NCBI GenBank assembly: GCA_035389045.1
Contig: DAOORA010000010.1
Location: 1-64,000, forward strand
Direction: 5' to 3'
Source of the DNA: Bacteroidales bacterium
GTDB lineage: Bacteria > Bacteroidota > Bacteroidia > Bacteroidales > CAIWKO01
DNA length: 64,000 nucleotides
Under the pieces are notes generated by a model. It did no database searches, was not told where the DNA came from, and was given only the letters and a program-made list of their open reading frames with translations. This document shows positions 6,517 to 20,521 of this stretch, piece by piece. Position 1 is the first letter of the stretch, and the number at the start of each line of letters is the position of its first letter. The position numbers and the translations under genes were made by a program.

Positions 6517-8853
6517 ATGAAACTCTGGAATTTACATATAATATTTCTCATTTTATTTGGTGGGTTATTCCTGTTTCAGGCTGAAACTACCCGTTCGCAA
6601 AACTATGAAGAAAGCATCAGCATCGGCGACGAAGCTTTTAAAGAAGGAGATTATTATTCGGCTTCCACCTTTTATAACAATGCACTGTGGCATGATTCCT
6701 CCGATTTAAAACTTGCATACAAATGTGCCGAAGCCAACCGTTTTTTCAATAATTATCAGCAGGCACGGCGGTGGTACAATTATGTCTTTAATGCCGACTC
6801 AAAAAAAGAACTGCCCCTGTCGCAGTTTTATCTTGGACTGATGGAGAAATCGCTGGGCAATTATACCGAGGCACTACTACAATTCAGGGCTTATTATAAT
6901 GAAAATATAAATAAAGCCGATGAATTTTTCATCGAAAAAGCCCGTAACGAAATTATTGCCTGTCAGGATGCCCCGAAGATCATTGCAGATAAAAAAAATG
7001 TAGTTATTCAACATCTTGCCGAAACCTCGGTAAACACGGAATTTTCAGAATTCAACGCCGTTCAGCTCAGCGATACCGCATTGGTTTTTTCAGCCCTTAA
7101 ACCCGTTTCGCAGGGGAGTTTCGATGCCTATATTCCCAATGCATACATATCAAAGATATATATGGCCAGGGCTACTGTTTCGGGCTGGGACAAAGCCATC
7201 GAACTCGACGCTAAGATCAATGATAAAGCGACTCATAATGCTAATATCTGTTTTTCCAAAGACCATAAAAAGGTGTTTTTTACCCGTGCCAAAGCTGAAG
7301 ATAACAACAGCCTGAAAGCGGAAATTTATGTTTCGGAACTCACCGACGGTAAATGGCAAAAAGCGAAAAAACTTTCAGAAAAAATAAATCTGGAAGGTTA
7401 CACCTCCACACATCCCTGTTTCGTGGAAACCAGCGATTATAACATGCTGTACTTCGTTTCCAACCGCCCGGGAGGTATAGGCGGACTCGACATCTGGTAC
7501 TGCCTTGTCAAAGACGGCGTGTTTCAGGATCCTGTCAACCTTGGCAGTCTGATTAACACTCCCGGCGATGAGATCACACCTTTTTACTTTGACAGCACGC
7601 AGATGCTTTATTTCAGTTCCGACTACCACAAAGGGCTCGGAGGTTTTGATGTTTTTTATTCACAGGGACACTTCAATACCTGGTCGCTGCCGCTCAACAT
7701 CGGATATCCGATAAACAGCAGTTGCAACGACACCTATTTCACGGTGACAGAAGTAGATAACGATGGCTATTTCACATCTAACCGCCCGGGCTCGCTATCC
7801 ATCAAAAGCGAAACATGCTGCTATGACATCTATTCCTATGAATGGCAGGATACGGTCAAACCCAAACCGGTGGTAATCGTTCCGGTGGACATACCCAAAG
7901 ATACTGTCATCATTGAAGAACCCATTAAACCCACACTTCCGCTCACCCTGTACTTTCATAATGATGAACCGGATCCCCGGTCGAATGATACAACTACAAA
8001 ACAAAACTACCAGGACCTGCTGAACAGCTACTATGCCATGAAAGGCAACTATACCGAAGAATATTCCGGGGGGCTGTCAGGCCATGAGAAGTCCAAAGCC
8101 GAAAAGGATATCCATGATTTCTTCGAAAATTATGTTGCCAAAGGGTTTACGCAACTTGAACTTTTTGCCAAAATGCTGCAAAACGACCTGTCGCGCGGCA
8201 ACAGCATCAAAATCAAGATCAAGGGTTTCTGCAGCCCGCTGCACACCTCGAACTACAATTACAGGCTTTCCAAAAGACGCATAGCTTCCGTAGTCAATTT
8301 TCTGAAGGAATACCAAAGCGGCGCATTGCTTGAATATCTCAACGGTACCGCACGTAATGGCGCCAAACTTACCATCATCCGCGATCCGCTGGGTAAATCA
8401 ACCGCCAGCCTGCTGGTGAGTGACAACCCCAATGACCAGCGCAATTCTGTTTACAGCCGTGCCGCTGCTTTTGAACGTAAAGTTCAGATTATTCTCTATG
8501 AAAGTGATCACCAGGGTTTGCCAGCAGCCGGAAATTTTCCGGATATTCTTTTTACTGAAAAAGTTTTTGATTTCGGTTCTGTTACACAAGGCAGCGAAAC
8601 CGCTATCACAATAAAGTTTAAGAACACGGGCAAAGCCCCGCTGACCATTGCGGGCATCGAAACCAGCTGCAGTTGCATCACCGCCGACAGGCCCATAGAA
8701 GCCCTTGCCCCCGGAAAGGAAGGGTCGATGAAACTATCATTCAATACCAGCGAAGATGCGGGAAAATACAAAGAAACCATCACCATTTACACCAATACAC
8801 CCAAAGCAAAATACATTATCCCGGTTCATGCCGTCCTGCTGCCGAAAAACTGA
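6517..8853 (+). CDS. PorE-like protein: TPR + PD40/WD40 propeller + OmpA-like domain + C-terminal DUF1573 Ig-like domain
   Basis: TPR helices, YFVSNRPGGIGGLDIW and LYFSSDYH.GLGGFDVF PD40 repeats, NYRLSKRR OmpA-like motif, FDFG...SCSC DUF1573; directly follows porP. ATG 6517 chosen as start. Confidence 0.8.
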   Translation: MKLWNLHIIFLILFGGLFLFQAETTRSQNYEESISIGDEAFKEGDYYSASTFYNNALWHDSSDLKLAYKCAEANRFFNNYQQARRWYNYVFNADSKKELPLSQFYLGLMEKSLGNYTEALLQFRAYYNENINKADEFFIEKARNEIIACQDAPKIIADKKNVVIQHLAETSVNTEFSEFNAVQLSDTALVFSALKPVSQGSFDAYIPNAYISKIYMARATVSGWDKAIELDAKINDKATHNANICFSKDHKKVFFTRAKAEDNNSLKAEIYVSELTDGKWQKAKKLSEKINLEGYTSTHPCFVETSDYNMLYFVSNRPGGIGGLDIWYCLVKDGVFQDPVNLGSLINTPGDEITPFYFDSTQMLYFSSDYHKGLGGFDVFYSQGHFNTWSLPLNIGYPINSSCNDTYFTVTEVDNDGYFTSNRPGSLSIKSETCCYDIYSYEWQDTVKPKPVVIVPVDIPKDTVIIEEPIKPTLPLTLYFHNDEPDPRSNDTTTKQNYQDLLNSYYAMKGNYTEEYSGGLSGHEKSKAEKDIHDFFENYVAKGFTQLELFAKMLQNDLSRGNSIKIKIKGFCSPLHTSNYNYRLSKRRIASVVNFLKEYQSGALLEYLNGTARNGAKLTIIRDPLGKSTASLLVSDNPNDQRNSVYSRAAAFERKVQIILYESDHQGLPAAGNFPDILFTEKVFDFGSVTQGSETAITIKFKNTGKAPLTIAGIETSCSCITADRPIEALAPGKEGSMKLSFNTSEDAGKYKETITIYTNTPKAKYIIPVHAVLLPKN

Positions 8854-9601
8854 TCTGCTGTACTTTCTTTTTACCATCGTGATGCTGCCAGCCATGTTGG
8901 GAGTTTCATGCCATTCACCTGAAAATAAATATGAGTTAAACGCTCCAAATTCCTCGCACAACAAGCCTTCGGAGGATACTACGGAAGGCATTTCGGCCAT
9001 TGAACTGGAGATGATCCATATGGGGCTTACAGATATTCAGAATGCGGACACCAACATTCAGGTTGATATCAGGTATTCCACAACGGATAATTTTCTGAAA
9101 ACCGACATCTACGGTGAATACGATAAAGCATACTTGCAGGCGGAGGTGGCTGACAAATTAAAAATAGCACAGGCCGGTCTTGCTGAATTGCAGCCCGGCT
9201 ACAGCCTTGTCGTTTTTGATGCTGCCCGTCCGTTAATTTTCCAGAAGATGATCTGGGATTCCCTGAAGCTGCCGGTATGGGAAAAGGGAAAATTTGCCTC
9301 TAATCCGGCCAGAGGATCCTTACATAATTTCGGCGCCGCCGTTGATCTGAGCATCCTTGATGAGGAGGGCAAAGAATTAGACATGGGAACACCCTACGAC
9401 TTTATGGGCGCTTTGGCCTATCCGGTCATGGAAACAAAATTTCTTGCCGATGGCAGCCTCACTCAACAACAGGTCGACAACAGAAAACTGCTGAGACAGG
9501 TGATGCATAAGGCAGGATTTTTCAATATACAGACGGAATGGTGGCACTTTAATTCGTGCACACGGGCTGAGGCCTGGATTAAGTATAAGATAATTGAATA
9601 A
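8828..9601 (+). CDS. ddpX: D-alanyl-D-alanine dipeptidase (peptidase M15D, VanX-like), probable lipoprotein
   Basis: SLHNFGAAVD and EWWHF zinc motifs, LDMGTPYD. Start uncertain (8756/8828/8882). Confidence 0.85.
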   Translation: MPSCCRKTDLLYFLFTIVMLPAMLGVSCHSPENKYELNAPNSSHNKPSEDTTEGISAIELEMIHMGLTDIQNADTNIQVDIRYSTTDNFLKTDIYGEYDKAYLQAEVADKLKIAQAGLAELQPGYSLVVFDAARPLIFQKMIWDSLKLPVWEKGKFASNPARGSLHNFGAAVDLSILDEEGKELDMGTPYDFMGALAYPVMETKFLADGSLTQQQVDNRKLLRQVMHKAGFFNIQTEWWHFNSCTRAEAWIKYKIIE

Positions 9602-11400: not shown

Positions 11401-14400
11401 GTGAAGTTCGGTACAAAAAAGAAAAATAAAAACAAGGCACAGGTTTTTCAGACCTCGCACAAAACCCGTTGGAACAGTTTTCTTTGGATCACCGGGCTTT
11501 TGGGGGCAATGGTTTTAATTTGCATATTCGTTCTCGGTATTTCACTTGTTCAACCCTCACTTACAGATTTTGAAGATGAAACAGACCATGCCGCACTTAA
11601 GAGGTTTGCCCGGCAGGATTCATTTCATGAAACTGTAAAAGAACCTGCCGGTACGATATATCGGACACCACGGACCAAGCCCGGAAAAAGAAAGCGGCTA
11701 TGTGCTCCTGCCGGAGACAGGATTAGAGCGGGATTCTACGTGAACTGGGATAAAAGTTCTTTTACCACACTGGAGGATTTTGGCGGATCGCTGAACATGA
11801 TCTTTCCTGAGTGGTTCTTTGTTCACCAGGGAAAGGATACGGCGTACCGGCAGATCGACACCGCGGCGCTCCGCCTTATGCGCGATTTCAACCTGGAAAT
11901 TGTGCCGGTACTGAGTAATTTCTCACAGGGCTTTAATCCTGAAAACGTGAGAGATGTGTTGAATTCACCTGTGAAAAGAAAAAAATTTATTTATAACCTC
12001 GTCCGGATAATGGATCAGTATAATTTCTTTGGGATCAATATTGACTTTGAAGAAATGACACCCTCCGATAATGGACCCCTCATCAATTTTTACAGGGAAT
12101 TGCATGATACATTTGCCGAAAAAAAGTATATCATTGTATGTGATATTTCTCCAAAAAACCTTGATCCTGAGTTTATTAATGAAGTCAAGGATTATTGTGA
12201 TTATTTTGTGCTTATGGCTTACGACCAGCATTATTCCTTAGGCTCGCCGGGGCCTGTGTCAGCCTATCCCTGGACAGAACACCTGCTCGACACCATCGGG
12301 GAATGTTGCGGCCTGCAGAAGTTCATCCTCGGATTTGCCGGTTATGGTTATGACTGGACAGAGGGCATATCTGGCAAAAGTATCTCTTATATACAGGCGA
12401 TAACGCTGGCCTCGCAGTATAACACTGAAATCAACTTCGATTGTTATTCATATAATCTTAATTTTCAATATCTTGACGACAGCAACCGGATTCATACGGT
12501 ATGGCTTCCCGATGCTGCTTCAAATTTCAATACGATCAGACTGGCCGAAGACTATGGTTTGGCCGGTGCAGCACTATGGCGTTTAGGAGTTGAAGATATG
12601 CGGCTATGGGAATTTTATGAGAACAGCCTGTGTTACGACAGCATCAGTCGCCATCCGTTAACGTTGAAAGTCACCGATGCCTCGGAGGTTCAGGATAATA
12701 TCAATTATAACGGTCAGGGCGATGTTTGGGATATCAAAAGTGTTCCCGGCAAAGGGGAAATAACGTTTACCTGCGACCGTAACAAGCTCCTGATTACCGG
12801 GGAAGTGTATAAAAAACTTCCGGCCACCTGTGTGGTAGACAGAAAGGGCTATGATCCCCGGAAATTGGTGATCACCTTCGATGATGGTCCCGATCCCGAT
12901 TATACGCCCAAAATCCTGGAGATATTACGAAGTAAAAATGTCCCTGCTGTGTTTTTCATTATCGGTGAAAATGCTCAGAAATATTTACCCTTAGTGAAAC
13001 GCATCTATGATGAAGGCCACGAAATCGGCAACCATACATTCACACATCCGAATGTCAATAAGGTCAGTAACTCAAGGTTTGAACTGGAATTAAATGCCAC
13101 CCGGCGCCTGATCGAAAGTGTGACCGGACATTCTACCATTATATTCCGGACTCCGTTCAACACGACCTATAATGCTGTGAGTTATAATGATATCATGGCG
13201 GTGAAATGGGCTGAGGACTTACATTATTTCTGTGTCACCGAATCGGTGGGGGCATACGACTGGAAGCCGGGGTTTACTAAAGACAGCATTATCAGGAGCA
13301 TCAACAGGGAAATAAGCAGGGGGTCGGTCATGATCTTTCACGATGCAGGCGGAAACCGTAAGGCCACCGTGGATGCGCTTCCCGAGATCATTGATTATTT
13401 CAGGGCTGAGGGCTATGAGTTCGTATCGCTGGCCCAGCTGATGCAAAAAGATAAAAGCTACCTGATGCCTGAAGTCAAAGCACCGGCAGACAAATACCTG
13501 GCGAAAACAAATTGGATCAGTTTCATGGGAATGTATCTTTTCAGGAAGGTTATATTTGCATTTTTTTTATTTATAGTCGCAATTTCAACCCTGCGTTGTA
13601 TATTCATAATGATCCTCGCATTTATTGATAAAAAGAAACACAATCGTAAGGTATTCCCAGAAATCCCCGAAACTGAATTACCTAAGGTCAGCATTATTGT
13701 TCCCGCTTACAATGAACAAACGGGTATCATCAGAAACCTCAGCAACCTGCGGAAAACCACCTATCCTGATTTTGAAATCATTCTGGTGGACGATGGTTCA
13801 CAGGATAACACCTACGAACTGGTCTGTAATGAATTTAAGGACGACCCGCATTTCCACACTTACCGGAAAGAAAACGGTGGCAAAGCCTCTGCCTTGAATT
13901 TCGGTGTTGAACGATCGTCCGGAACGATACTGGTGTGCATAGATGCCGACACCCAGTTGTTGCCATCCGCCATAGGTTTTCTGGTGAGGCATTTCGCCGA
14001 TCCCCGTGTTGGCGCTGTGGCGGGAAATGTCAAGATAGGCAATGAAATAAATCTGTTGTCGCACTGGCAGAGTATAGAGTATATCACAACCCAGAATTTT
14101 GACCGGAGGGCCTTCAACCTGCTGAACTGCATCACCGTAGTCCCCGGGGCTATCGGCGCCTTCCGGAAACAGGCTGTTATCGACTGCGGCTATTACGCCA
14201 CCAATACCATGGCCGAAGATTGCGACATCACCATACAGATGATCCGTAAAGGTTATAAAGTTGTTTCGGATTCTGCGGCCATCGCTTACACAGAAGCCCC
14301 GCTGACAGCCAATATGTTGCAACGGCAGCGGTTGCGCTGGAATTACGGTATACTCCAGAGTTTCTGGAAGCACCGCCAATGCCTGATGAATCCAAAGTAT

Positions 14401-14748
14401 AAAGCATTGGGGTTAGTGGCTCTGCCCAACATGGCGGTATTTCAGATCTTTATGCCGCTTATTGCTCCGCTGGCCGATGTGGTGCTGTTGATATCTTTTA
14501 TTTTCGGAAACTTTGGTACGGTACTCCTGTATTACCTGATATTTGTTGTTTTTGAATTTATTGCAGGAGTGGTGGCTTTTTCATTTGAAAAAGAGAAATT
14601 TTTAAAACTCATTTATCTTTTCCCACAGAAATTTTATTACCGTCAACTCATGTATTTTGTAGCCATAAAATCATTGTTCAGGGCTGTCAGGGGCGGTATG
14701 TACTCATGGGGGCATATCAGTCGTAAAGGTATTGAGGAAGTTGCCTGA
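11401..14748 (+). CDS. Fusion of GH18-like hydrolase + polysaccharide deacetylase (CE4) + GT2 synthase
   Basis: GINIDFE and LMAYDQH (GH18); TFDDGP and HEIGNHTFTH (NodB); DDGS, GGKA, DAD, ED and QRLRW (processive GT2); flanking TM helices. Confidence 0.9.
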   Translation: MKFGTKKKNKNKAQVFQTSHKTRWNSFLWITGLLGAMVLICIFVLGISLVQPSLTDFEDETDHAALKRFARQDSFHETVKEPAGTIYRTPRTKPGKRKRLCAPAGDRIRAGFYVNWDKSSFTTLEDFGGSLNMIFPEWFFVHQGKDTAYRQIDTAALRLMRDFNLEIVPVLSNFSQGFNPENVRDVLNSPVKRKKFIYNLVRIMDQYNFFGINIDFEEMTPSDNGPLINFYRELHDTFAEKKYIIVCDISPKNLDPEFINEVKDYCDYFVLMAYDQHYSLGSPGPVSAYPWTEHLLDTIGECCGLQKFILGFAGYGYDWTEGISGKSISYIQAITLASQYNTEINFDCYSYNLNFQYLDDSNRIHTVWLPDAASNFNTIRLAEDYGLAGAALWRLGVEDMRLWEFYENSLCYDSISRHPLTLKVTDASEVQDNINYNGQGDVWDIKSVPGKGEITFTCDRNKLLITGEVYKKLPATCVVDRKGYDPRKLVITFDDGPDPDYTPKILEILRSKNVPAVFFIIGENAQKYLPLVKRIYDEGHEIGNHTFTHPNVNKVSNSRFELELNATRRLIESVTGHSTIIFRTPFNTTYNAVSYNDIMAVKWAEDLHYFCVTESVGAYDWKPGFTKDSIIRSINREISRGSVMIFHDAGGNRKATVDALPEIIDYFRAEGYEFVSLAQLMQKDKSYLMPEVKAPADKYLAKTNWISFMGMYLFRKVIFAFFLFIVAISTLRCIFIMILAFIDKKKHNRKVFPEIPETELPKVSIIVPAYNEQTGIIRNLSNLRKTTYPDFEIILVDDGSQDNTYELVCNEFKDDPHFHTYRKENGGKASALNFGVERSSGTILVCIDADTQLLPSAIGFLVRHFADPRVGAVAGNVKIGNEINLLSHWQSIEYITTQNFDRRAFNLLNCITVVPGAIGAFRKQAVIDCGYYATNTMAEDCDITIQMIRKGYKVVSDSAAIAYTEAPLTANMLQRQRLRWNYGILQSFWKHRQCLMNPKYKALGLVALPNMAVFQIFMPLIAPLADVVLLISFIFGNFGTVLLYYLIFVVFEFIAGVVAFSFEKEKFLKLIYLFPQKFYYRQLMYFVAIKSLFRAVRGGMYSWGHISRKGIEEVA

Positions 14749-14883
14749 TGGAGATTTTCGCTAACAGGATGTTTTTCCTTAAAGGACTGTTTATAACACG
14801 CCTAAGATCAGTCCTTCTTATTGCACCTGAAAATCTTTGTTGCAGGACATAGTTACAAATACAAACATGCCCTGCAAGGGTTA

Positions 14884-15591
14884 TTAGTACCAGTTCCGGT
14901 GATCGGTGACCAGTTTGGCGGATTTGTATTTTCCTTTGAAGAAATTCAGCCGGAACGCTTTTACCGCAATGGGTATTTCTTCTCCCTTGTTGGATTTCAT
15001 AACGAGATCCTTTGAGTTTTTCAGGGAAAAGTCAATTTTGCCTTTTGCCAGTTCCGTTAACTCGAGTCCAAGGTTCACATCAACATCTGTATCCGTTTTT
15101 ATATGGGCTTCAAAGTTTTTGGCATACAGTATCCCACTGATCAGTATTAAATTATTCTGATTTGCCTGGTCAATAATTTCCGGGTTGGAACTGACAAAAC
15201 CACCATCTTTTTGATAGAAATAATTGCTGAAATCGGCATGGGGATATTCGGTCAGTTGCGCATCATTGAAAGCAATACTCACATTTTTGCCGCCTTTGAT
15301 TTTTACGTTTAACCCTAAATTGCCGAGGTTGAGTTTGCTCAACAATTCTTCTAAGGCAGTGATACCAATACCTATATCGTAATCTCTCTTTGCTGAATAA
15401 TCTACAAACAAAGCAGGCGCCACATACTTTTTCAGCACATACGGGCTTGCATACAGGTCAGGCAGCATCTGGAAAAAAGTGATCCTGTTGTTGTCTTTTT
15501 TATTCCAGACGGATAGCAGTAACTGATTGCGTACGGGGCCATCTATATAATCAAGCCCCTGATCTTTAAGAATCTTATTTAAATTTGCCAT
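14884..15591 (-). CDS. Bacterial gasdermin-like protein (putative pore former)
   Basis: Segments LKDQGLDYIDGP.RN..LLSVW, NLILISGILYAKNFEAHI and DLVMKS..IPIAVKAFRLNF resemble recalled conserved blocks of bacterial gasdermins; 235 aa, beta-rich. Recognised by eye only. Confidence 0.65.
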   Translation of the reverse strand: MANLNKILKDQGLDYIDGPVRNQLLLSVWNKKDNNRITFFQMLPDLYASPYVLKKYVAPALFVDYSAKRDYDIGIGITALEELLSKLNLGNLGLNVKIKGGKNVSIAFNDAQLTEYPHADFSNYFYQKDGGFVSSNPEIIDQANQNNLILISGILYAKNFEAHIKTDTDVDVNLGLELTELAKGKIDFSLKNSKDLVMKSNKGEEIPIAVKAFRLNFFKGKYKSAKLVTDHRNWY

Positions 15592-15608
15592 GTTTAAAAT
15601 ATTTAGTA

Positions 15609-15616
15609 CAAATATA
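15609..15616 (-). promoter_or_regulatory. Bacteroidota -7 promoter box of the gasdermin-like gene
   Basis: TATATTTG on the minus strand matches TAnnTTTG and lies 17 nt upstream of the ATG. Confidence 0.5.
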
Positions 15617-15821
15617 AAGGCTTTTTTTAGTTAAATCAAGTTAAATTTACCGGTTGCGGGATATTCAAATGAATTTGTTTTCAATAAACATTTAGATTTA
15701 AAGAATATAAAAATTGCTGACCTGGCGGATATAGTACATACCGGAATGGTCACTTAACAGAGGCCAATTTCCTTATGACTTAAAAAGCACAATGATTAGT
15801 TACACGCAAGTTCTCATATCC

Positions 15822-16616
15822 CTATCGCGAGTATACATGAACACTGTTCATGGCTGAGGGAAGGTAATTGATGCCGAACCAGCAGATCAGCAGCACAATA
15901 AATGAAATGGCCAGTATCCAGAGCGAAAATTTTACATGCCGGTTCTTGTCGATTCTGAAATGAAGGTAGAGGAGGTACACCAGCCATGTTAATAAGGCCC
16001 ATGTTTCTTTGGGATCCCATGTCCAATAGCTTCCCCATGCTACTTTTGCCCACAAGGCACCGAATAATAAGCCAAAGGTCAGAAAGGCAAAACCTGAATA
16101 AACAATAGTATCGGCCAACTGCAAGGTCTTTTCGCAAGGCCTTGATCTAAAGGAAAGATAAAGTCCTTTGACCGCTGTCACCGAGGCGGCAGCCATAAAC
16201 GCATAACTGATCATATACACAATGACGTGCGGTATGAACCACGGGCTTTGCAGGGCAGGCATCAGGGTCTTGTCGAAATTATCGGGATGGAGGTAATTCA
16301 GAAAAAGAAAAAGTACCGCCATCAGCAGGCCGTATACGAGCATCCATTTATAACGCCAGATAAAATAAATGACGATGCTTATTACGGACAGAAATATGGA
16401 ATACCACATCCGTGTTTCGCCAAGCGTCCTGAAGACAGGCCTTTCGAGCGCGATCCACAATCCGGCAATGTATACGGCCAGCGCCAGTATCCCCGCAACG
16501 ATCAACGCTAAAGCAAGCTTTTCGGCGCTTTTTTTCTTTGGGATCATCAACAGCAGCCCTGCCAGCCATAAACCACAACTAAGAAACATGAAAAACGGAT
16601 AATTGGTCCAGTTCAT
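15822..16616 (-). CDS. ccsA: Cytochrome c biogenesis protein CcsA (system II)
   Basis: WWD-type motif WAKVAWGSYWTWDPKETW, LQSPWFIPHV and C-terminal SVHVY. Start taken at MNWTNY. Confidence 0.92.
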   Translation of the reverse strand: MNWTNYPFFMFLSCGLWLAGLLLMIPKKKSAEKLALALIVAGILALAVYIAGLWIALERPVFRTLGETRMWYSIFLSVISIVIYFIWRYKWMLVYGLLMAVLFLFLNYLHPDNFDKTLMPALQSPWFIPHVIVYMISYAFMAAASVTAVKGLYLSFRSRPCEKTLQLADTIVYSGFAFLTFGLLFGALWAKVAWGSYWTWDPKETWALLTWLVYLLYLHFRIDKNRHVKFSLWILAISFIVLLICWFGINYLPSAMNSVHVYSR

Positions 16617-16627
16617 TTTATAAATTT

Positions 16628-17878
16628 TTATTCCGTTGTTCTTTTGGGTCTGCCGCACCATAGCAAATATAAGGCACCGGCCATGATCATAAAAATCCCG
16701 GTGTAAACTACCGGCAGCCAGGGATCCCTGACCAGCTGCAGCACGCTTCTTCTCGACCATTTTCCCATCTGCTGGTCATATCCGGCCTGATAAACAGTCC
16801 AGCCTTTGTATTTGGCAGGTTTGTTCACTTCCACCACGAAATCCCGGGATTCATTCATCGTGCTGTACGCTCTGACGAGAGAGACGAACCTCCTGGGCTT
16901 GCTTACCGTCATAGCGATAGCTTCACCATTCTGTAAATCAAGAACCTGGGGGTATATGTATGGACTGCCGGAACTCACCCAGCCGGTGTATGTCTTACCA
17001 CTATCTTTGTGGCTGACATTGATAAAAACTGCCGGCGCGCTCCCATACGACGCCGTAGGGACAAAACCTGCCGAATCCTGGTATGCGTTTTCAATATAAT
17101 TCTCTATCCCGACTATCCAGCCGCCCATCATACCTTTGTTGCCCTTTTTTACCGTAAGGAGGTTTTTGGCCGGAATTTTCAGACTACCGTCGGAGGCATT
17201 GATCAATCCAAGTTCCGGAGGATATTCATCCATACTGAATTTCAACAGTTTAAGCCCTATGTTCACATCAAAGGTACGTCCCTGGTCATCAGAAGCAATA
17301 AAAACCGTTTTATTCTCCTGGAGCACCATATTCAGCTTTATGGAATCCGTAGCGCCCAGTGAAGCGGCAACAATAACAATCCATAAGCCGAAATGATTCA
17401 GAATGAAAGCCGCATTTTTAAGAGAGAAAGGCCATAGCCTTCTGATAATGGTGAGGCTGAGGACAAGCAACAGGTTGAAGCTGCAGAGCAAAAAAGGCCA
17501 GCTTCGGGTGATATGATCAAGGCCGGATTTGGTCAGAAAGGAATCTGCATTTACATTATTCTGCGGGATGATACCCATGAGCAACAGCAGCAATGCAAAG
17601 ACCCCGACGGCAGAAATAGCTGCATATGTGCTTGATAACCATTTTTTTAAGGGATGTTTTACCAGTAAGTGAAAAGCAACAATATAAGCTATGAACAGAA
17701 GTAATATCAAAATATTTGAAGGCCAGCCCGGCATCGAAAATCCTTTACCACCGCTGAGGAGTTCAATGATAAAGCCCGAAAGCAACAGCCCGGCGGATAT
17801 TAAAATACTTTCCCGGAATTTCCATGGAAATTGCCCGAATTTTCTTTCAGGAGTGATATTTTCATTCGCTTCATTCAC
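16628..17878 (-). CDS. ccsB: Cytochrome c biogenesis protein CcsB/ResB-like
   Basis: N-terminal TM helices with FILNHFGLW, periplasmic domain, VNKP..YQAGYD..DPWLPVVYTG end; adjacent to ccsA. Confidence 0.85.
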   Translation of the reverse strand: MNEANENITPERKFGQFPWKFRESILISAGLLLSGFIIELLSGGKGFSMPGWPSNILILLLFIAYIVAFHLLVKHPLKKWLSSTYAAISAVGVFALLLLLMGIIPQNNVNADSFLTKSGLDHITRSWPFLLCSFNLLLVLSLTIIRRLWPFSLKNAAFILNHFGLWIVIVAASLGATDSIKLNMVLQENKTVFIASDDQGRTFDVNIGLKLLKFSMDEYPPELGLINASDGSLKIPAKNLLTVKKGNKGMMGGWIVGIENYIENAYQDSAGFVPTASYGSAPAVFINVSHKDSGKTYTGWVSSGSPYIYPQVLDLQNGEAIAMTVSKPRRFVSLVRAYSTMNESRDFVVEVNKPAKYKGWTVYQAGYDQQMGKWSRRSVLQLVRDPWLPVVYTGIFMIMAGALYLLWCGRPKRTTE

Positions 17879-19670: not shown

Positions 19671-20282
19671 TTAAAGATTTTGAAGCTCTTTGCTTATTTG
19701 CTTTTTAACCTTAGACCAAGTGACTTTTGTATCAAAAACCAGTGGCTCCGGGTTGTTTTCGGCATCTTTAAAGTACGATATGCTTCTTATTACATGAAAC
19801 AATGTCTGATGCTGATATTTTTCTTTATAAAACTCCAGTAAGGATGTTAGTTTGAATTGCTTTAATAAAAAATACAAATCAAAAAAATCTTTCTTATTGC
19901 CTCTGCCGGTAATTGCATCAATTTTCATTGCGGCAATGTCAATAATATCAAACAATCTGAAATCATCAACTTCAATTAATGGCCGGATAGGTGGATATTT
20001 AAACCGGATAAAATCAACTTTGATATTGTTGATATTACAAATCAATGTATTGGGCATTTTCAGCAATACAAGAATCTCGTAATCGTTTAGCAACTTTGAT
20101 AATAACACATCGGAATCGAAATCCTTACCCGTAAACATATCCAGATCAATCGATCTTCTATGCCCTATTTGAAATGCCAGTGCAGTTCCACCGGCCAGAA
20201 CAAAATCCGCCAGGTAGTTTTTTTGCATAAAACTCTTTAACAGTTCCAGTGTGACTGGTTCAATTGATTCAGTGTGTAACAT
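19671..20282 (-). CDS. Nucleotidyltransferase, AbiEii/AbiGii toxin family
   Basis: LAGGTALA..IGHRRSIDLD, AMKIDAI.GRG.KKDFFDLY. Confidence 0.9.
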   Translation of the reverse strand: MLHTESIEPVTLELLKSFMQKNYLADFVLAGGTALAFQIGHRRSIDLDMFTGKDFDSDVLLSKLLNDYEILVLLKMPNTLICNINNIKVDFIRFKYPPIRPLIEVDDFRLFDIIDIAAMKIDAITGRGNKKDFFDLYFLLKQFKLTSLLEFYKEKYQHQTLFHVIRSISYFKDAENNPEPLVFDTKVTWSKVKKQISKELQNL

Positions 20283-20521
20283 CTGAAATCCTCGGGTTTA
20301 ATCTTAAAATAGATACTGCAAAAGCTCAGGGTTCTCTCATCAAGATATCGTAACTTTTTTATGATTTGTTTTAACCTCGGTTTTCCATAAAAATCCCTGA
20401 TAGCAAAAAAATCTTCCAGAGTTCCTGATTCCAGAACTCTTTGCACAATAAAAGAAGCATGCTTTTTATAATCTATGCTATTAACATCTACATCCCAGAA
20501 TAAGTTATCTGAAATTTTCAT
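20237..20521 (-). CDS. DUF6922 family protein (putative antitoxin partner)
   Basis: LFWDVD...FIVQRVLESG..EDF...FYG; overlaps the start of the nucleotidyltransferase gene. Confidence 0.8.
   Translation of the reverse strand: MKISDNLFWDVDVNSIDYKKHASFIVQRVLESGTLEDFFAIRDFYGKPRLKQIIKKLRYLDERTLSFCSIYFKIKPEDFRCYTLNQLNQSHWNC

Follow-up and report, generated by a model that had tools for sequence, protein, structure and literature searches.

A short gasdermin gene of the Bacteroidota that encodes the pore-forming domain only and has no linked protease

The window, the whole 64,000-nucleotide stretch of DNA from a Bacteroidales bacterium that was analysed, contains a gene whose product is a true bacterial gasdermin (bGSDM) by profile and fold. 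The gene was shown to belong to a distinct, diverse Bacteroidota clade that comprises the pore-forming domain only. The best reading is a protein that would be activated without removal of a peptide, and a cleavage-independent single-gene gasdermin is the best explanation of the results, held with middling confidence for a mechanism that we infer. The gene and the neighbours referred to below are as follows.

8756-9601: M15 D-Ala-D-Ala dipeptidase, the sole peptidase among the 18 ORFs scanned (3805-30097).
11401-14748, plus strand: fusion of GH18, polysaccharide deacetylase and GT2, 1115 aa, the convergent neighbour.
14884..15591, minus strand: coding sequence of the short-clade bacterial gasdermin (P0001), 235 aa with an ATG start, stop codon counted in; identified by ORF call, sequence profiles, and a model with fold match.
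15822-16760, minus strand: ccsA, upstream of the gasdermin gene on the same strand across a 230-bp gap.

Calls of the ORF and its flanking genes agreed with the earlier note in placing a stand-alone 235-aa ORF between the GT2 fusion and ccsA. Translation likewise agreed in the absence of cysteine from all 235 residues and in the 17 residues that remain to the C-terminus after the AVKAFRLNFF strand (VKAFRLNFF in that note) closes at residue 218. A scan of 3805-30097, which took in 18 ORFs with a length of 130 aa or more, detected no protease of the gasdermin-associated type. The source genome (G000, 96.3% complete) yielded a single gasdermin match. The GC content of the gene is 0.400 and that of the window 0.419, a difference that is not distinctive, and an origin from foreign DNA on this ground was rejected. 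AbiEii is located approximately 4 kb from the gasdermin gene.

The protein matched the PADLOC bGSDM profile (PDLC02986) with E 2e-20, and PF26164 (Bact_GSDM) was precomputed for 10/10 homologs as well as for the identical cluster. A Pfam-A scan returned no family at E <= 1 and is uninformative since the library copy lacked PF26164. The NCBIfam equivalog prok_gasdermin (NF051890) gave 89.1 bits against a cut-off of 100, which two clade-mates exceeded with 139.8 and 134.2 bits. Searching the PDB with the single sequence by phmmer returned only 4dsd at chance level (E 0.043). A profile of 64 family sequences matched 7n51 and 8sl0 with E 1e-16, 7n52 and 9v2s with 2e-6 and 7n50 with 0.024, the values of 1e-16 and 2e-6 being those for the Vitiosangium and Runella bGSDM structures. 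The AF2 model (pLDDT 91.1, pTM 0.86; an earlier 10-sequence model with pLDDT 56.8 was discarded) contains the core of twisted beta-sheet and the proto-finger helices of the gasdermin N-terminal domain. Ranks 1-6 of the Foldseek search with this model were occupied by the bGSDM crystals 7n51, 7n52 and 7n50 (E 1.6e-12 and TM 0.70 for 7n51), and VIA comparison with the three bGSDM structures gave Z 18.1, 15.0 and 13.3 over 228, 220 and 216 aligned residues. Since AF2 tends to model gasdermin pore domains of any kind in the resting fold, the model is no proof of a stable resting state. The gasdermin homology advanced in the earlier note is borne out by PADLOC, the NCBIfam clade-mates, the family profile and the AF2 fold, and the AlphaFold and Foldseek comparison with bGSDM structures that it proposed returned a match in place of the lack of one that it had named as refuting. 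Pore formation, toxicity and anti-phage activity of the clade are all putative properties, from homology.

The gene, which had been described as an orphan, belongs to a whole clade that shares its architecture. This short clade forms 84 clusters at 50% identity, and the Atlas cluster counts ~130 of its members. Its proteins are ~233 aa long, with 55 of the 57 representatives of at least 220 aa falling at 223-244 aa and the two longer ones carrying the added length at the N-terminal side. The dN/dS ratio was 0.04-0.14 in 8/10 pairs of relatives, the other two pairs being saturated, and this purifying selection indicates that the gene is more than a chance ORF. In a quick, unrooted tree a single branch of length ~2 (SH-aLRT 100) separated the short clade from the protease-linked clade. 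A profile search of a set of 5.8 billion proteins gave 13 matches, all within the clade. Cysteine was absent from the first six residues in 64/64 short-clade members, and 45/64 are free of cysteine throughout. The self-palmitoylated Cys (position 3-4) of canonical bGSDMs, the loss of which is reported in PMC10153256 to lower pore formation, is thus missing here; it is not universal, since it is also missing from the Gillisia-type Bacteroidota clade. Indeed, an N-terminal Cys was found in 0/33 members of the protease-linked Bacteroidota sister clade, the Gillisia bGSDM among them, and the absence of Cys is therefore not the distinctive feature that it had been taken for.

As described in 10.1101/2021.06.07.447441, published bGSDMs are protease-gated: a dedicated protease takes off an inhibitory peptide of ~20 aa, the cleavage sites are within a loop of ~12 aa, L260, F253 and F264 are latch residues, and the Runella, Bradyrhizobium and Vitiosangium proteins minus the C-terminal peptide cause growth arrest and are toxic in E. 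coli. The bGSDMs of Runella zeae, Vitiosangium, Bradyrhizobium and Gillisia (7n52, 7n51, 7n50, 8sl0, 9v2s) have the same fold as the short-clade protein and a homologous core that extends from the N-terminus as far as the last hairpin. The difference lies beyond this core, where canonical bGSDMs have the cleavage loop of ~12 aa and an inhibitory peptide of 16-30 aa that are both missing from the short-clade protein. Its C-terminal end is divided as follows.

14887..14910, minus strand: C-terminal stub, residues 228-235 (VTDHRNWY), by the motif [VIL]-[TS]-D-x-[RK]-x-hydrophobic-F.
14911..14976, minus strand: last beta-hairpin of the pore-forming core, residues 206-227 (IPIAVKAFRLNFF / KYKSAKL), by secondary structure of the model, conservation and alignment.

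Residues 206-227 contain the most conserved strand of the family (P207, A209, K211, A212, R214), and the family profile aligned this hairpin to Vitiosangium 213-226. Neither an inhibitory peptide (~16-30 or more aa) nor a protease-accessible loop was found in the 8 residues past the last core strand; the stub is in place of both. Of the 17 residues that the earlier note had counted past the strand, ~9 form part of the last core hairpin and are no tail, and what stands is the strongly conserved 8-residue stub. The proposal that the protein ends near the end of a cleaved or truncated canonical bGSDM is upheld by the profile and by further comparisons. VIA paired model residue 229 with residue 233 of the active-state Vitiosangium chain, the construct of which ends at 237. 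The hhalign comparison with the protease-linked clade (prob 99.6, 220 columns) ended at 224/228, leaving 11 residues in the short clade versus 36. Past the conserved Lys there are 22-30 residues in 64/64 short members (24 here) versus 48-52 in 33/33 canonical ones. In the MAFFT alignment the terminal R...F of the short clade falls on the conserved R-F ahead of the CTD of the canonical clade. The end point agrees within a few residues with that of engineered CTD-less bGSDMs, namely Runella 1-247 and Vitiosangium 1-237, the latter being the active construct from which the 29-aa CTD was removed (PMC10153256). The engineered forms, most with the palmitoyl-Cys, are constitutively toxic in E. coli, whereas the short clade is natural, selected and evidently tolerated.

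Few parts of the protein are as conserved as the stub, with D230 in 57/64 members, F at position 235 in 55/62 (entropy ranks 15 and 14 of 235) and R or K at 232 in 46/63, and it was modelled with pLDDT ~88. In the resting bGSDM structures the ranges aligned by VIA pair model residue 235 with 263 of 7n51, 254 of 7n50 and 260 of 7n52, the far end of the inhibitory peptides and near the published latch residues given above, which suggests that the stub may sit in a portion of the canonical latch site. These properties are consistent with proteolysis in trans, in which the 8 residues may, from the model, act as a minimal removable latch that is clipped by a protease encoded elsewhere, for example after R/K232 or D230. 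The enzyme would be trypsin-like, a metacaspase or CHAT protease, or a carboxypeptidase, and the cut would free the terminal aromatic plug and release the pore domain; from its conservation, R/K232 could serve as P1 for an enzyme of the trypsin or metacaspase type. The published sites are within a loop that the short-clade protein lacks, however, and the MAFFT alignment of R...F suggests that the stub motif may be simply the end of the core domain.

The distribution of proteases also bears on this explanation. On other contigs the source genome encodes a single Peptidase_C14 and three CHAT proteins, which would supply candidates. Among the immediate neighbours scanned at the 8 short-clade loci with flanks (the window and 7 more), however, none was a protease or a PADLOC match, versus a PADLOC 'chat' protease of 549-606 aa directly upstream at 16/16 loci of the protease-linked sister clade. 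Thus the absence of a protease neighbour stated in the earlier note holds for the 18 ORFs around the gene and for the other short-clade loci in the survey of homolog neighbourhoods that it had suggested. With the dedicated CHAT protease as query, an ortholog was detected in G087 (E 1.5e-75) and none in G000, G115 or G123, three genomes that carry short-clade genes; neither Peptidase_C14 nor CHAT was found in G115, which is 100% complete. Proteolysis in trans is considered improbable on this balance. Johnson et al. list 7/50 bGSDMs without an adjacent protease, which may or may not belong to the short clade, and the accessible parts of the literature searched, a 2024 review included, did not describe any clade of short bGSDMs without a protease.

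Several features of the region around the gene concern its expression.

14651..14883, minus strand: possible 3' UTR past the stop codon that ends near 14651 and that metatranscriptome contigs connect to the gene.
15609-15616, minus strand: TATATTTG, a promoter-like box of the Bacteroidota type TAnnTTTG, 17 nt before the ATG.
15639-15611: sigma-70-like match that overlaps the TATATTTG box.

The TAnnTTTG box that the earlier note had assigned to the gene is present at this distance from the ATG; the motif occurs in the window at chance level, with 77 found versus 69 +/- 8 expected and at least 77 in 16/100 shuffles, and its presence alone is therefore no proof of a promoter. Within 14300-16300, RNA contigs from three activated-sludge libraries covered only 14651-15567, that is, the gasdermin gene and its 3' flank, and left ccsA and the body of the GT2 fusion uncovered. 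In two of the RNA runs the contigs that continue into the gasdermin gene have their ends at 14651 and 14652; since they carry no strand, the 3' UTR is a weak hint. The contigs are also of low depth, and carry-over of DNA is possible. The coverage points weakly to expression of the gasdermin gene that is tolerated. A split gene or a separately encoded tail peptide was rejected, since no minus-strand ORF of at least 20 aa lies between 14613 and 14884. In two relatives (L017 and L021) the next gene begins 42-57 nt past the gasdermin stop.

The length, equal to that of the toxic truncated forms, and the isolation of the gene, which has a promoter-like box to itself and lacks a partner, are what would be expected of a lysin gated by expression. 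Such a protein would be constitutively pore-competent and harmless only because its transcription or translation is tightly controlled; it would fire in part of the population or upon stress, for programmed lysis, for release of eDNA or vesicles, or in holin-like use by a mobile element. The patchy spread agrees with this, the short form having been found in 2 of 400 sampled Bacteroidota genomes besides the source genome (and the protease-linked form in 1). The RNA contigs argue weakly to the contrary, since coverage of the gene in three runs with its neighbours uncovered is more readily reconciled with steady transcription in a living population than with silence. In addition, none of 46 pattern matches in viral contigs was confirmed as a relative and a fold search of the viral set BFVD gave no match at E <= 0.001, results on which a viral origin was rejected. 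The conservation of the C-terminal stub and of the N-terminal face suggests instead a regulated resting state. Gating by expression is judged unlikely.

The neighbourhoods of the short clade consist mostly of housekeeping genes (ccsA/resB, pheT, pyruvate kinase, SOD, dapD). Defence-like neighbours were present only at some loci, namely type I R-M at L002 and L013 and, at the distance given above, the AbiEii of the window; the neighbourhoods are weak backing for a role in defence. All-against-all BLAST of ORFs of at least 50 aa from 14 loci revealed no neighbour protein shared between independent loci and yielded only gasdermins, antisense shadow ORFs and the synteny of the close relatives L005 and L017, by which a conserved partner of another kind was ruled out. 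A divergently oriented alpha/beta-hydrolase was observed at two related loci, with an adjoining GDSL lipase at one. The prevalence of housekeeping neighbours, the hydrolases, the absent palmitoyl-Cys and the equivalog score under the cut-off would each suit a protein with the gasdermin fold that is no longer, or never was, capable of lethal pore formation and has some other membrane or lipid role; lacking acyl anchor and activation step, it might bind membranes reversibly. Yet the hydrolases are not kept across independent loci, the hhalign comparison shows conservation with canonical bGSDMs along the whole pore-forming core, and the patchy accessory spread is typical of defence and toxin genes. 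A function other than killing is accordingly thought quite unlikely.

Activation independent of cleavage, the preferred reading, has likenesses among eukaryotic gasdermins. TrichoGSDM of Trichoplax (8jyv/8jyw) and RCD-1 of Neurospora (8jyy/8jyz) are described in PMC13475620 as the pore domain alone, as in the short-clade protein; the same source describes TrichoGSDM as held in a disulfide-linked dimer, unlike the protein studied here with its lack of Cys. Their folds were matched by VIA with Z 10.6-10.7 for TrichoGSDM and 7.2-7.4 for RCD-1, the sequences being more distant than those of bGSDMs. RCD-1 acts through paired variants that work together, and the source genome differs in its single gasdermin copy. 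Pyroptolysins, gasdermin-CDC chimeras described in 10.64898/2026.10.05.756811, also have a bacterial gasdermin-like N-terminal domain and no linked caspase-like protease as activator. They differ in a C-terminal beta-sandwich of the CDC type and in being sterol-dependent toxins on other cells, whereas the short-clade protein has no extra domain; its N-terminus, judged by eye, is unlike a signal peptide. Canonical bGSDM operons contain an adjacent protease gene of the caspase-like (C14/CHAT), trypsin-like or subtilase type, and the 8 short-clade loci scanned are without one.

According to the preferred reading of a single-gene gasdermin that needs no cleavage, the gene's own promoter would drive synthesis of a soluble monomer that adopts the gasdermin fold of the resting state. 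This state would be held by intrinsic features, possibly the packing of the terminal aromatic residue of the stub on the conserved N-terminal beta1-beta2 face, and possibly the absent acyl anchor, by which entry into the membrane would be made harder. The trigger, for which a phage or mobile-element protein, a membrane change or sheer dose are candidates, would be non-proteolytic and would lead to insertion into the inner membrane, oligomerisation and a beta-barrel pore by which the cell would be killed or permeabilised. The gene would then serve as a single-gene module for abortive infection or regulated lysis, a bacterial counterpart of the cleavage-independent gasdermins of eukaryotes. More tentatively, and with less confidence than in the general reading, the clade may be the first bacterial gasdermin lineage without proteolysis, a one-gene sensor and effector in which the aromatic stub would take the place of inhibitory peptide and palmitoyl plug alike and be displaced directly by a phage or membrane cue.

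Current defence-system finders require a protease neighbour, and to the extent that they do so short-clade gasdermins would be missed. Cleavage-independent activation is given for animals and fungi only in an October 2026 preprint from a gasdermin laboratory; if the preferred reading is true, it would be ancient and present in bacteria too, beyond these two groups. The clade is conserved and selected, its members are born "pre-cleaved" without a protease partner, and their hosts tolerate them. This raises the question of how a lone gasdermin pore domain is held silent inside a bacterium and what sets it off, and an answer would inform the evolution of gasdermin regulation.

The gasdermin-like gene described in the earlier note as stand-alone was found exactly as claimed with respect to position and length, on the minus strand and with an ATG start, and both flanking genes that it had named, a GT2 fusion and ccsA, were identified. 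The features of the region are as follows.

11401-14748 (+), fusion of GH18, polysaccharide-deacetylase and GT2, single ORF of 1115 aa, downstream of the gasdermin gene and convergent with it
14884..15591 (-), short-clade gasdermin ORF, ATG start, 235 aa
17 nt 5' of the gasdermin ATG (-), TATATTTG box of the TAnnTTTG type, motif match
15822-16760 (-), ccsA, upstream of the gasdermin gene on the same strand
16628-17878 (-), ResB-like gene, precedes ccsA
19671-20282 (-), AbiEii-type nucleotidyltransferase toxin (Pfam E 6e-14; several PADLOC AbiEii models)
20237-20521 (-), 94-aa ORF, overlaps the start of the AbiEii toxin ORF

The TAnnTTTG box that the earlier note had assigned to the gene is present; however, since this motif is no commoner in the window (77 occurrences) than in shuffles (69 ± 8), the TATATTTG box is compatible with a promoter of the gasdermin's own, a role that the motif does not prove. 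The 1115-aa fusion, which combines GH18 (chitinase-like), deacetylase and GT2 domains with membrane-spanning stretches, resembles a single-protein system for synthesising and modifying exopolysaccharide. The longest ccsA ORF shares 133 nt with the end of the ResB-like ORF, and the true start of ccsA probably lies further downstream because the Pfam match begins only at residue 118. The AbiEii toxin gene is ~4 kb from the gasdermin gene, and the overlapping 94-aa ORF may encode its antitoxin partner.

The window protein was matched by the PADLOC model for bacterial gasdermins (bGSDMs) with an E value of 2e-20 and scored 89.1 bits with the NCBIfam prok_gasdermin equivalog, just below the cut-off of 100. 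PF26164, named Bact_GSDM in the protein atlas, is precomputed on its database cluster and on all 10 close homologs. A profile built from 64 sequences of the short clade, the ~233-aa pore-domain-only bGSDMs that include the window protein, matched the solved structures from Vitiosangium (7n51/8sl0, E 1e-16), Runella (7n52/9v2s, E 2e-6) and Bradyrhizobium (7n50, E 0.024). An AlphaFold2 model from 10 sequences was poor and was set aside; the model based on the 64-sequence alignment was confident (pLDDT 91.1, pTM 0.86). Ranks 1-6 of the Foldseek search against the PDB were taken by three resting-state bGSDM crystal structures (7n51, E 1.6e-12, TM 0.70), followed at lower ranks by bGSDM pores, TrichoGSDM and mammalian gasdermins, and VIA-align gave Z scores of 18.1 (7n51), 15.0 (7n52) and 13.3 (7n50). 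Since sequence and fold evidence both support it, the homology claimed in the earlier note is established and the window protein is a member of Bact_GSDM.

When 1.84 billion representatives were searched exhaustively with phmmer, 84 clusters were returned at E <= 0.001 (66 of these at <= 1e-10), and none of the canonical 260-270-aa gasdermins was reached. The representatives were at least 220 aa long in 57 of the 84 clusters, 55 of the 57 measuring 223-244 aa; the other 27 were shorter fragments. In the two long representatives (262 and 263 aa) the match reaches their own C-termini, and the extra length is therefore N-terminal or internal. The canonical clade, a protease-linked Bacteroidota sister clade gathered from one genome match (G087, P0095, 264 aa), takes in the published Gillisia limnaea gene. 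When 64 short and 33 canonical sequences were placed in a quick, unrooted ML tree, one branch (SH-aLRT 100, length about 2) separated the groups, and profile-profile comparison of the two gave a probability of 99.6 across 220 columns. Short-clade members with organism titles came from Bacteroidales, Flavobacterium and Roseivirgaceae; among 400 evenly sampled Bacteroidota genomes, 2 had a short-clade gene and 1 a canonical gene, and the window's own genome (G000) encodes one gasdermin only. Since dN/dS was 0.04-0.14 for close pairs (8 of 10 pairs computed, 2 saturated), the short clade is a real gene family under selection. Another Bacteroidota genome contains a weak prok_gasdermin match (G179:C1:878878-879438, L038; 28.3 bits, E 2.8e-6) in a 311-aa open frame, which may encode a more distant gasdermin-like protein.

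Residue 218 is the last of the AVKAFRLNFF strand of the window protein, and 17 residues come after it. In the AlphaFold2 model the final beta-hairpin comprises residues 206-218 and 221-227, after which only the 8 residues VTDHRNWY (the stub) follow. Residues 3..229 of the model aligned by VIA-align with residues 10..233 of 8sl0, the chain of which is the Vitiosangium 1-237 construct with the 29-aa C-terminal inhibitory peptide (CTD) removed (PMC10153256); the Vitiosangium equivalents of the final hairpin are kept in this active pore form. Thus, the claim that the protein ends near the end of the cleaved form stood, but the 17 residues are not all tail. The hhalign alignment of short with canonical clade ended at 224/228, with 11 versus 36 residues left over. 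MAFFT placed the short-clade terminal aromatic on the canonical invariant F234, beyond which canonical proteins run 30 residues further. The residues past the conserved Lys of the A-V-K-A strand numbered 22-30 (mode 24, 42/64) in the short clade versus 48-52 (33/33) in the canonical clade, ranges without overlap, and the window protein matched the 257-position PADLOC profile only as far as position 226. Since all four comparisons show the shortfall, the short clade lacks both the cleavage loop (roughly 12 aa) and the inhibitory peptide (roughly 20 aa) reported by Johnson et al. for canonical bGSDMs, in which truncation of the peptide led to growth arrest (10.1101/2021.06.07.447441). The tail is not encoded separately: no minus-strand ORF of at least 20 aa was found downstream of the window gasdermin, and the gene after the gasdermin begins within 42-57 nt of it in two relatives.

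The stub is conserved and not junk. D230 was present in 57/64 sequences (conservation rank 15 of 235 positions), the terminal residue was F in 55/62 plus 4 Y (rank 14 of 235), R or K occupied position 232 in 46/63, and an aromatic stood within the last two residues of 55/57 full-length representatives. The stub may be a conserved edge of the core domain, because MAFFT puts its R...F on the R-F preceding the canonical CTD. It may also fold back as a minimal latch: the VIA-align ranges on resting structures end at residues 263 (7n51), 254 (7n50) and 260 (7n52), adjoining the published latch residues L260, F253 and F264 (10.1101/2021.06.07.447441), a hint and no more since the ranges give first and last aligned residues only.

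The absence of cysteine from the window protein, also claimed in the earlier note, is real, although not a mark of this gasdermin. No short-clade sequence (0/64) has a Cys within the first six residues and 45/64 have none at all; the corresponding counts for the canonical Bacteroidota clade are 0/33 and 30/33, and the Gillisia protein was already noted by Johnson et al. to lack an N-terminal Cys. Cysteine-lessness is therefore a Bacteroidota trait.

The claim that no protease gene is adjacent held for the window, where the sole peptidase among 18 ORFs of at least 130 aa scanned (3805-30097) was an M15 D-Ala-D-Ala dipeptidase and none was of the gasdermin-associated sort. Immediate neighbours in usable flanks of the window and seven further short-clade loci (L002 with its near-copy L013, L003, L005, L006, L017, L020 and L021) also gave no protease or PADLOC match. 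They comprised ccsA; an unknown 361-aa protein and a type I R-M system; SIMPL/DUF541 and pirin; alpha/beta-hydrolases and an AAA_14/DUF4143 ATPase; a GDSL lipase and an ABC transporter; a META-domain protein and dapD; and several unknowns. All-against-all BLAST of ORFs of at least 50 aa from 14 loci revealed no partner shared between independent loci, the matches being gasdermins, their antisense shadow ORFs and synteny of the close relatives L005/L017 only. In a 61%-identical relative (L002:2854-6533 / L013:2906-6585) the 361-aa protein, without Pfam or PADLOC match, precedes the gasdermin, which is followed by a type I R-M methylase/specificity pair. An alpha/beta-hydrolase gene is divergent beside the gasdermin in the closely related loci L005 (3-590, -) and L017 (5012-5812, -), and a GDSL lipase gene lies beside it in L020 (6979-7698, +); these adjacencies are probably lineage synteny or chance.

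As a positive control, a 549-606-aa ORF was found directly upstream on the same strand in 16/16 canonical loci with upstream DNA, a 17th being left out because it starts too close to the contig end, and all 16 matched PADLOC 'chat' (E 2.4e-6 to 5.8e-114). In all 16 of these loci (within L039-L055) the CHAT-type protease gene ends 5-40 nt before the gasdermin start (e.g. L055:3299-4993, Gillisia limnaea). Most of these proteases lacked any Pfam match at 1e-4, as shown for L022, and scored only weakly with 'chat'; they are therefore divergent. As to a cognate protease elsewhere in the genome, also raised in the earlier note, one canonical-clade protease used as query detected the ortholog adjacent to the gasdermin of G087 (E 1.5e-75) and none in G000, G115 or G123, three genomes with short-clade genes. 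Generic Peptidase_C14 and CHAT genes numbered 1 and 3 elsewhere in G000 and 1 and 1 in G123. Those of G000, three large CHAT-domain ORFs (open frames of 988-1247 aa, a tandem pair among them on C18) and a single Peptidase_C14 gene, all lie on contigs other than the window's (C18 45317-46315 and 48758-49753; C2 24314-25267; C3 10638-11285). Since G115, which is 100% complete, lacks both families, a caspase-like partner universal to the short clade is unlikely; a trans-acting protease of another type is possible, and it seems improbable overall that an unlinked protease trims the stub.

A canonical bGSDM of comparable length is constitutively lethal (10.1101/2021.06.07.447441), and a palmitoyl group promotes bGSDM insertion (PMC10153256). 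The short clade must, we infer, have some other restraint. Non-proteolytic release would be the most likely mode, with roughly an even chance of being correct; the intrinsic restraints would be the conserved stub, a conserved N-terminal face and the missing acyl anchor. A constitutively active lysin held by expression gating alone is an unlikely alternative. Parts of the 14300-16300 stretch are present in three activated-sludge RNA libraries, the contigs of which cover 14651-15567 only; this corresponds to the gasdermin gene plus some 230 nt past its stop, and the ccsA and GT2 parts of the stretch are uncovered. In two different runs a contig stops, at 14651 and 14652 respectively, within the 3' end of the convergent GT2 gene, where the transcript may terminate while overlapping the GT2 gene in antisense. 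This coverage, from contigs without strand or level, at a depth of about 5 and with DNA carry-over possible, is weakly suggestive of a separately transcribed, expressed gasdermin gene.

Family membership, patchy distribution and the presence of R-M or AbiEii genes close to some of the loci make a role in defence plausible; since most neighbourhoods are housekeeping, its probability is put somewhat below an even chance at best. A non-lethal role is considered decidedly unlikely. Compared with the characterised bGSDM system, the window protein lacks the inhibitory peptide, adjacent protease and palmitoyl-Cys. Its architecture is similar to that of the cleavage-independent eukaryotic TrichoGSDM and RCD-1 (PMC13475620), but it has neither a Cys for a disulfide dimer nor a second gasdermin copy. 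No description of a short, protease-less bacterial clade was found in the literature searched. An October 2026 preprint describes cleavage-independent mechanisms as known in animals and fungi. Johnson et al. list 7/50 bGSDMs without an adjacent protease, some of which may already be short-clade members, though none is discussed as such in the text consulted. Overall, what the earlier note observed of the window gasdermin was confirmed and its interpretation was supported in the testable parts: the short clade is a conserved, selected gasdermin pore domain without CTD, acyl-Cys, protease or partner, and the activation mode proposed for it would be readily testable.
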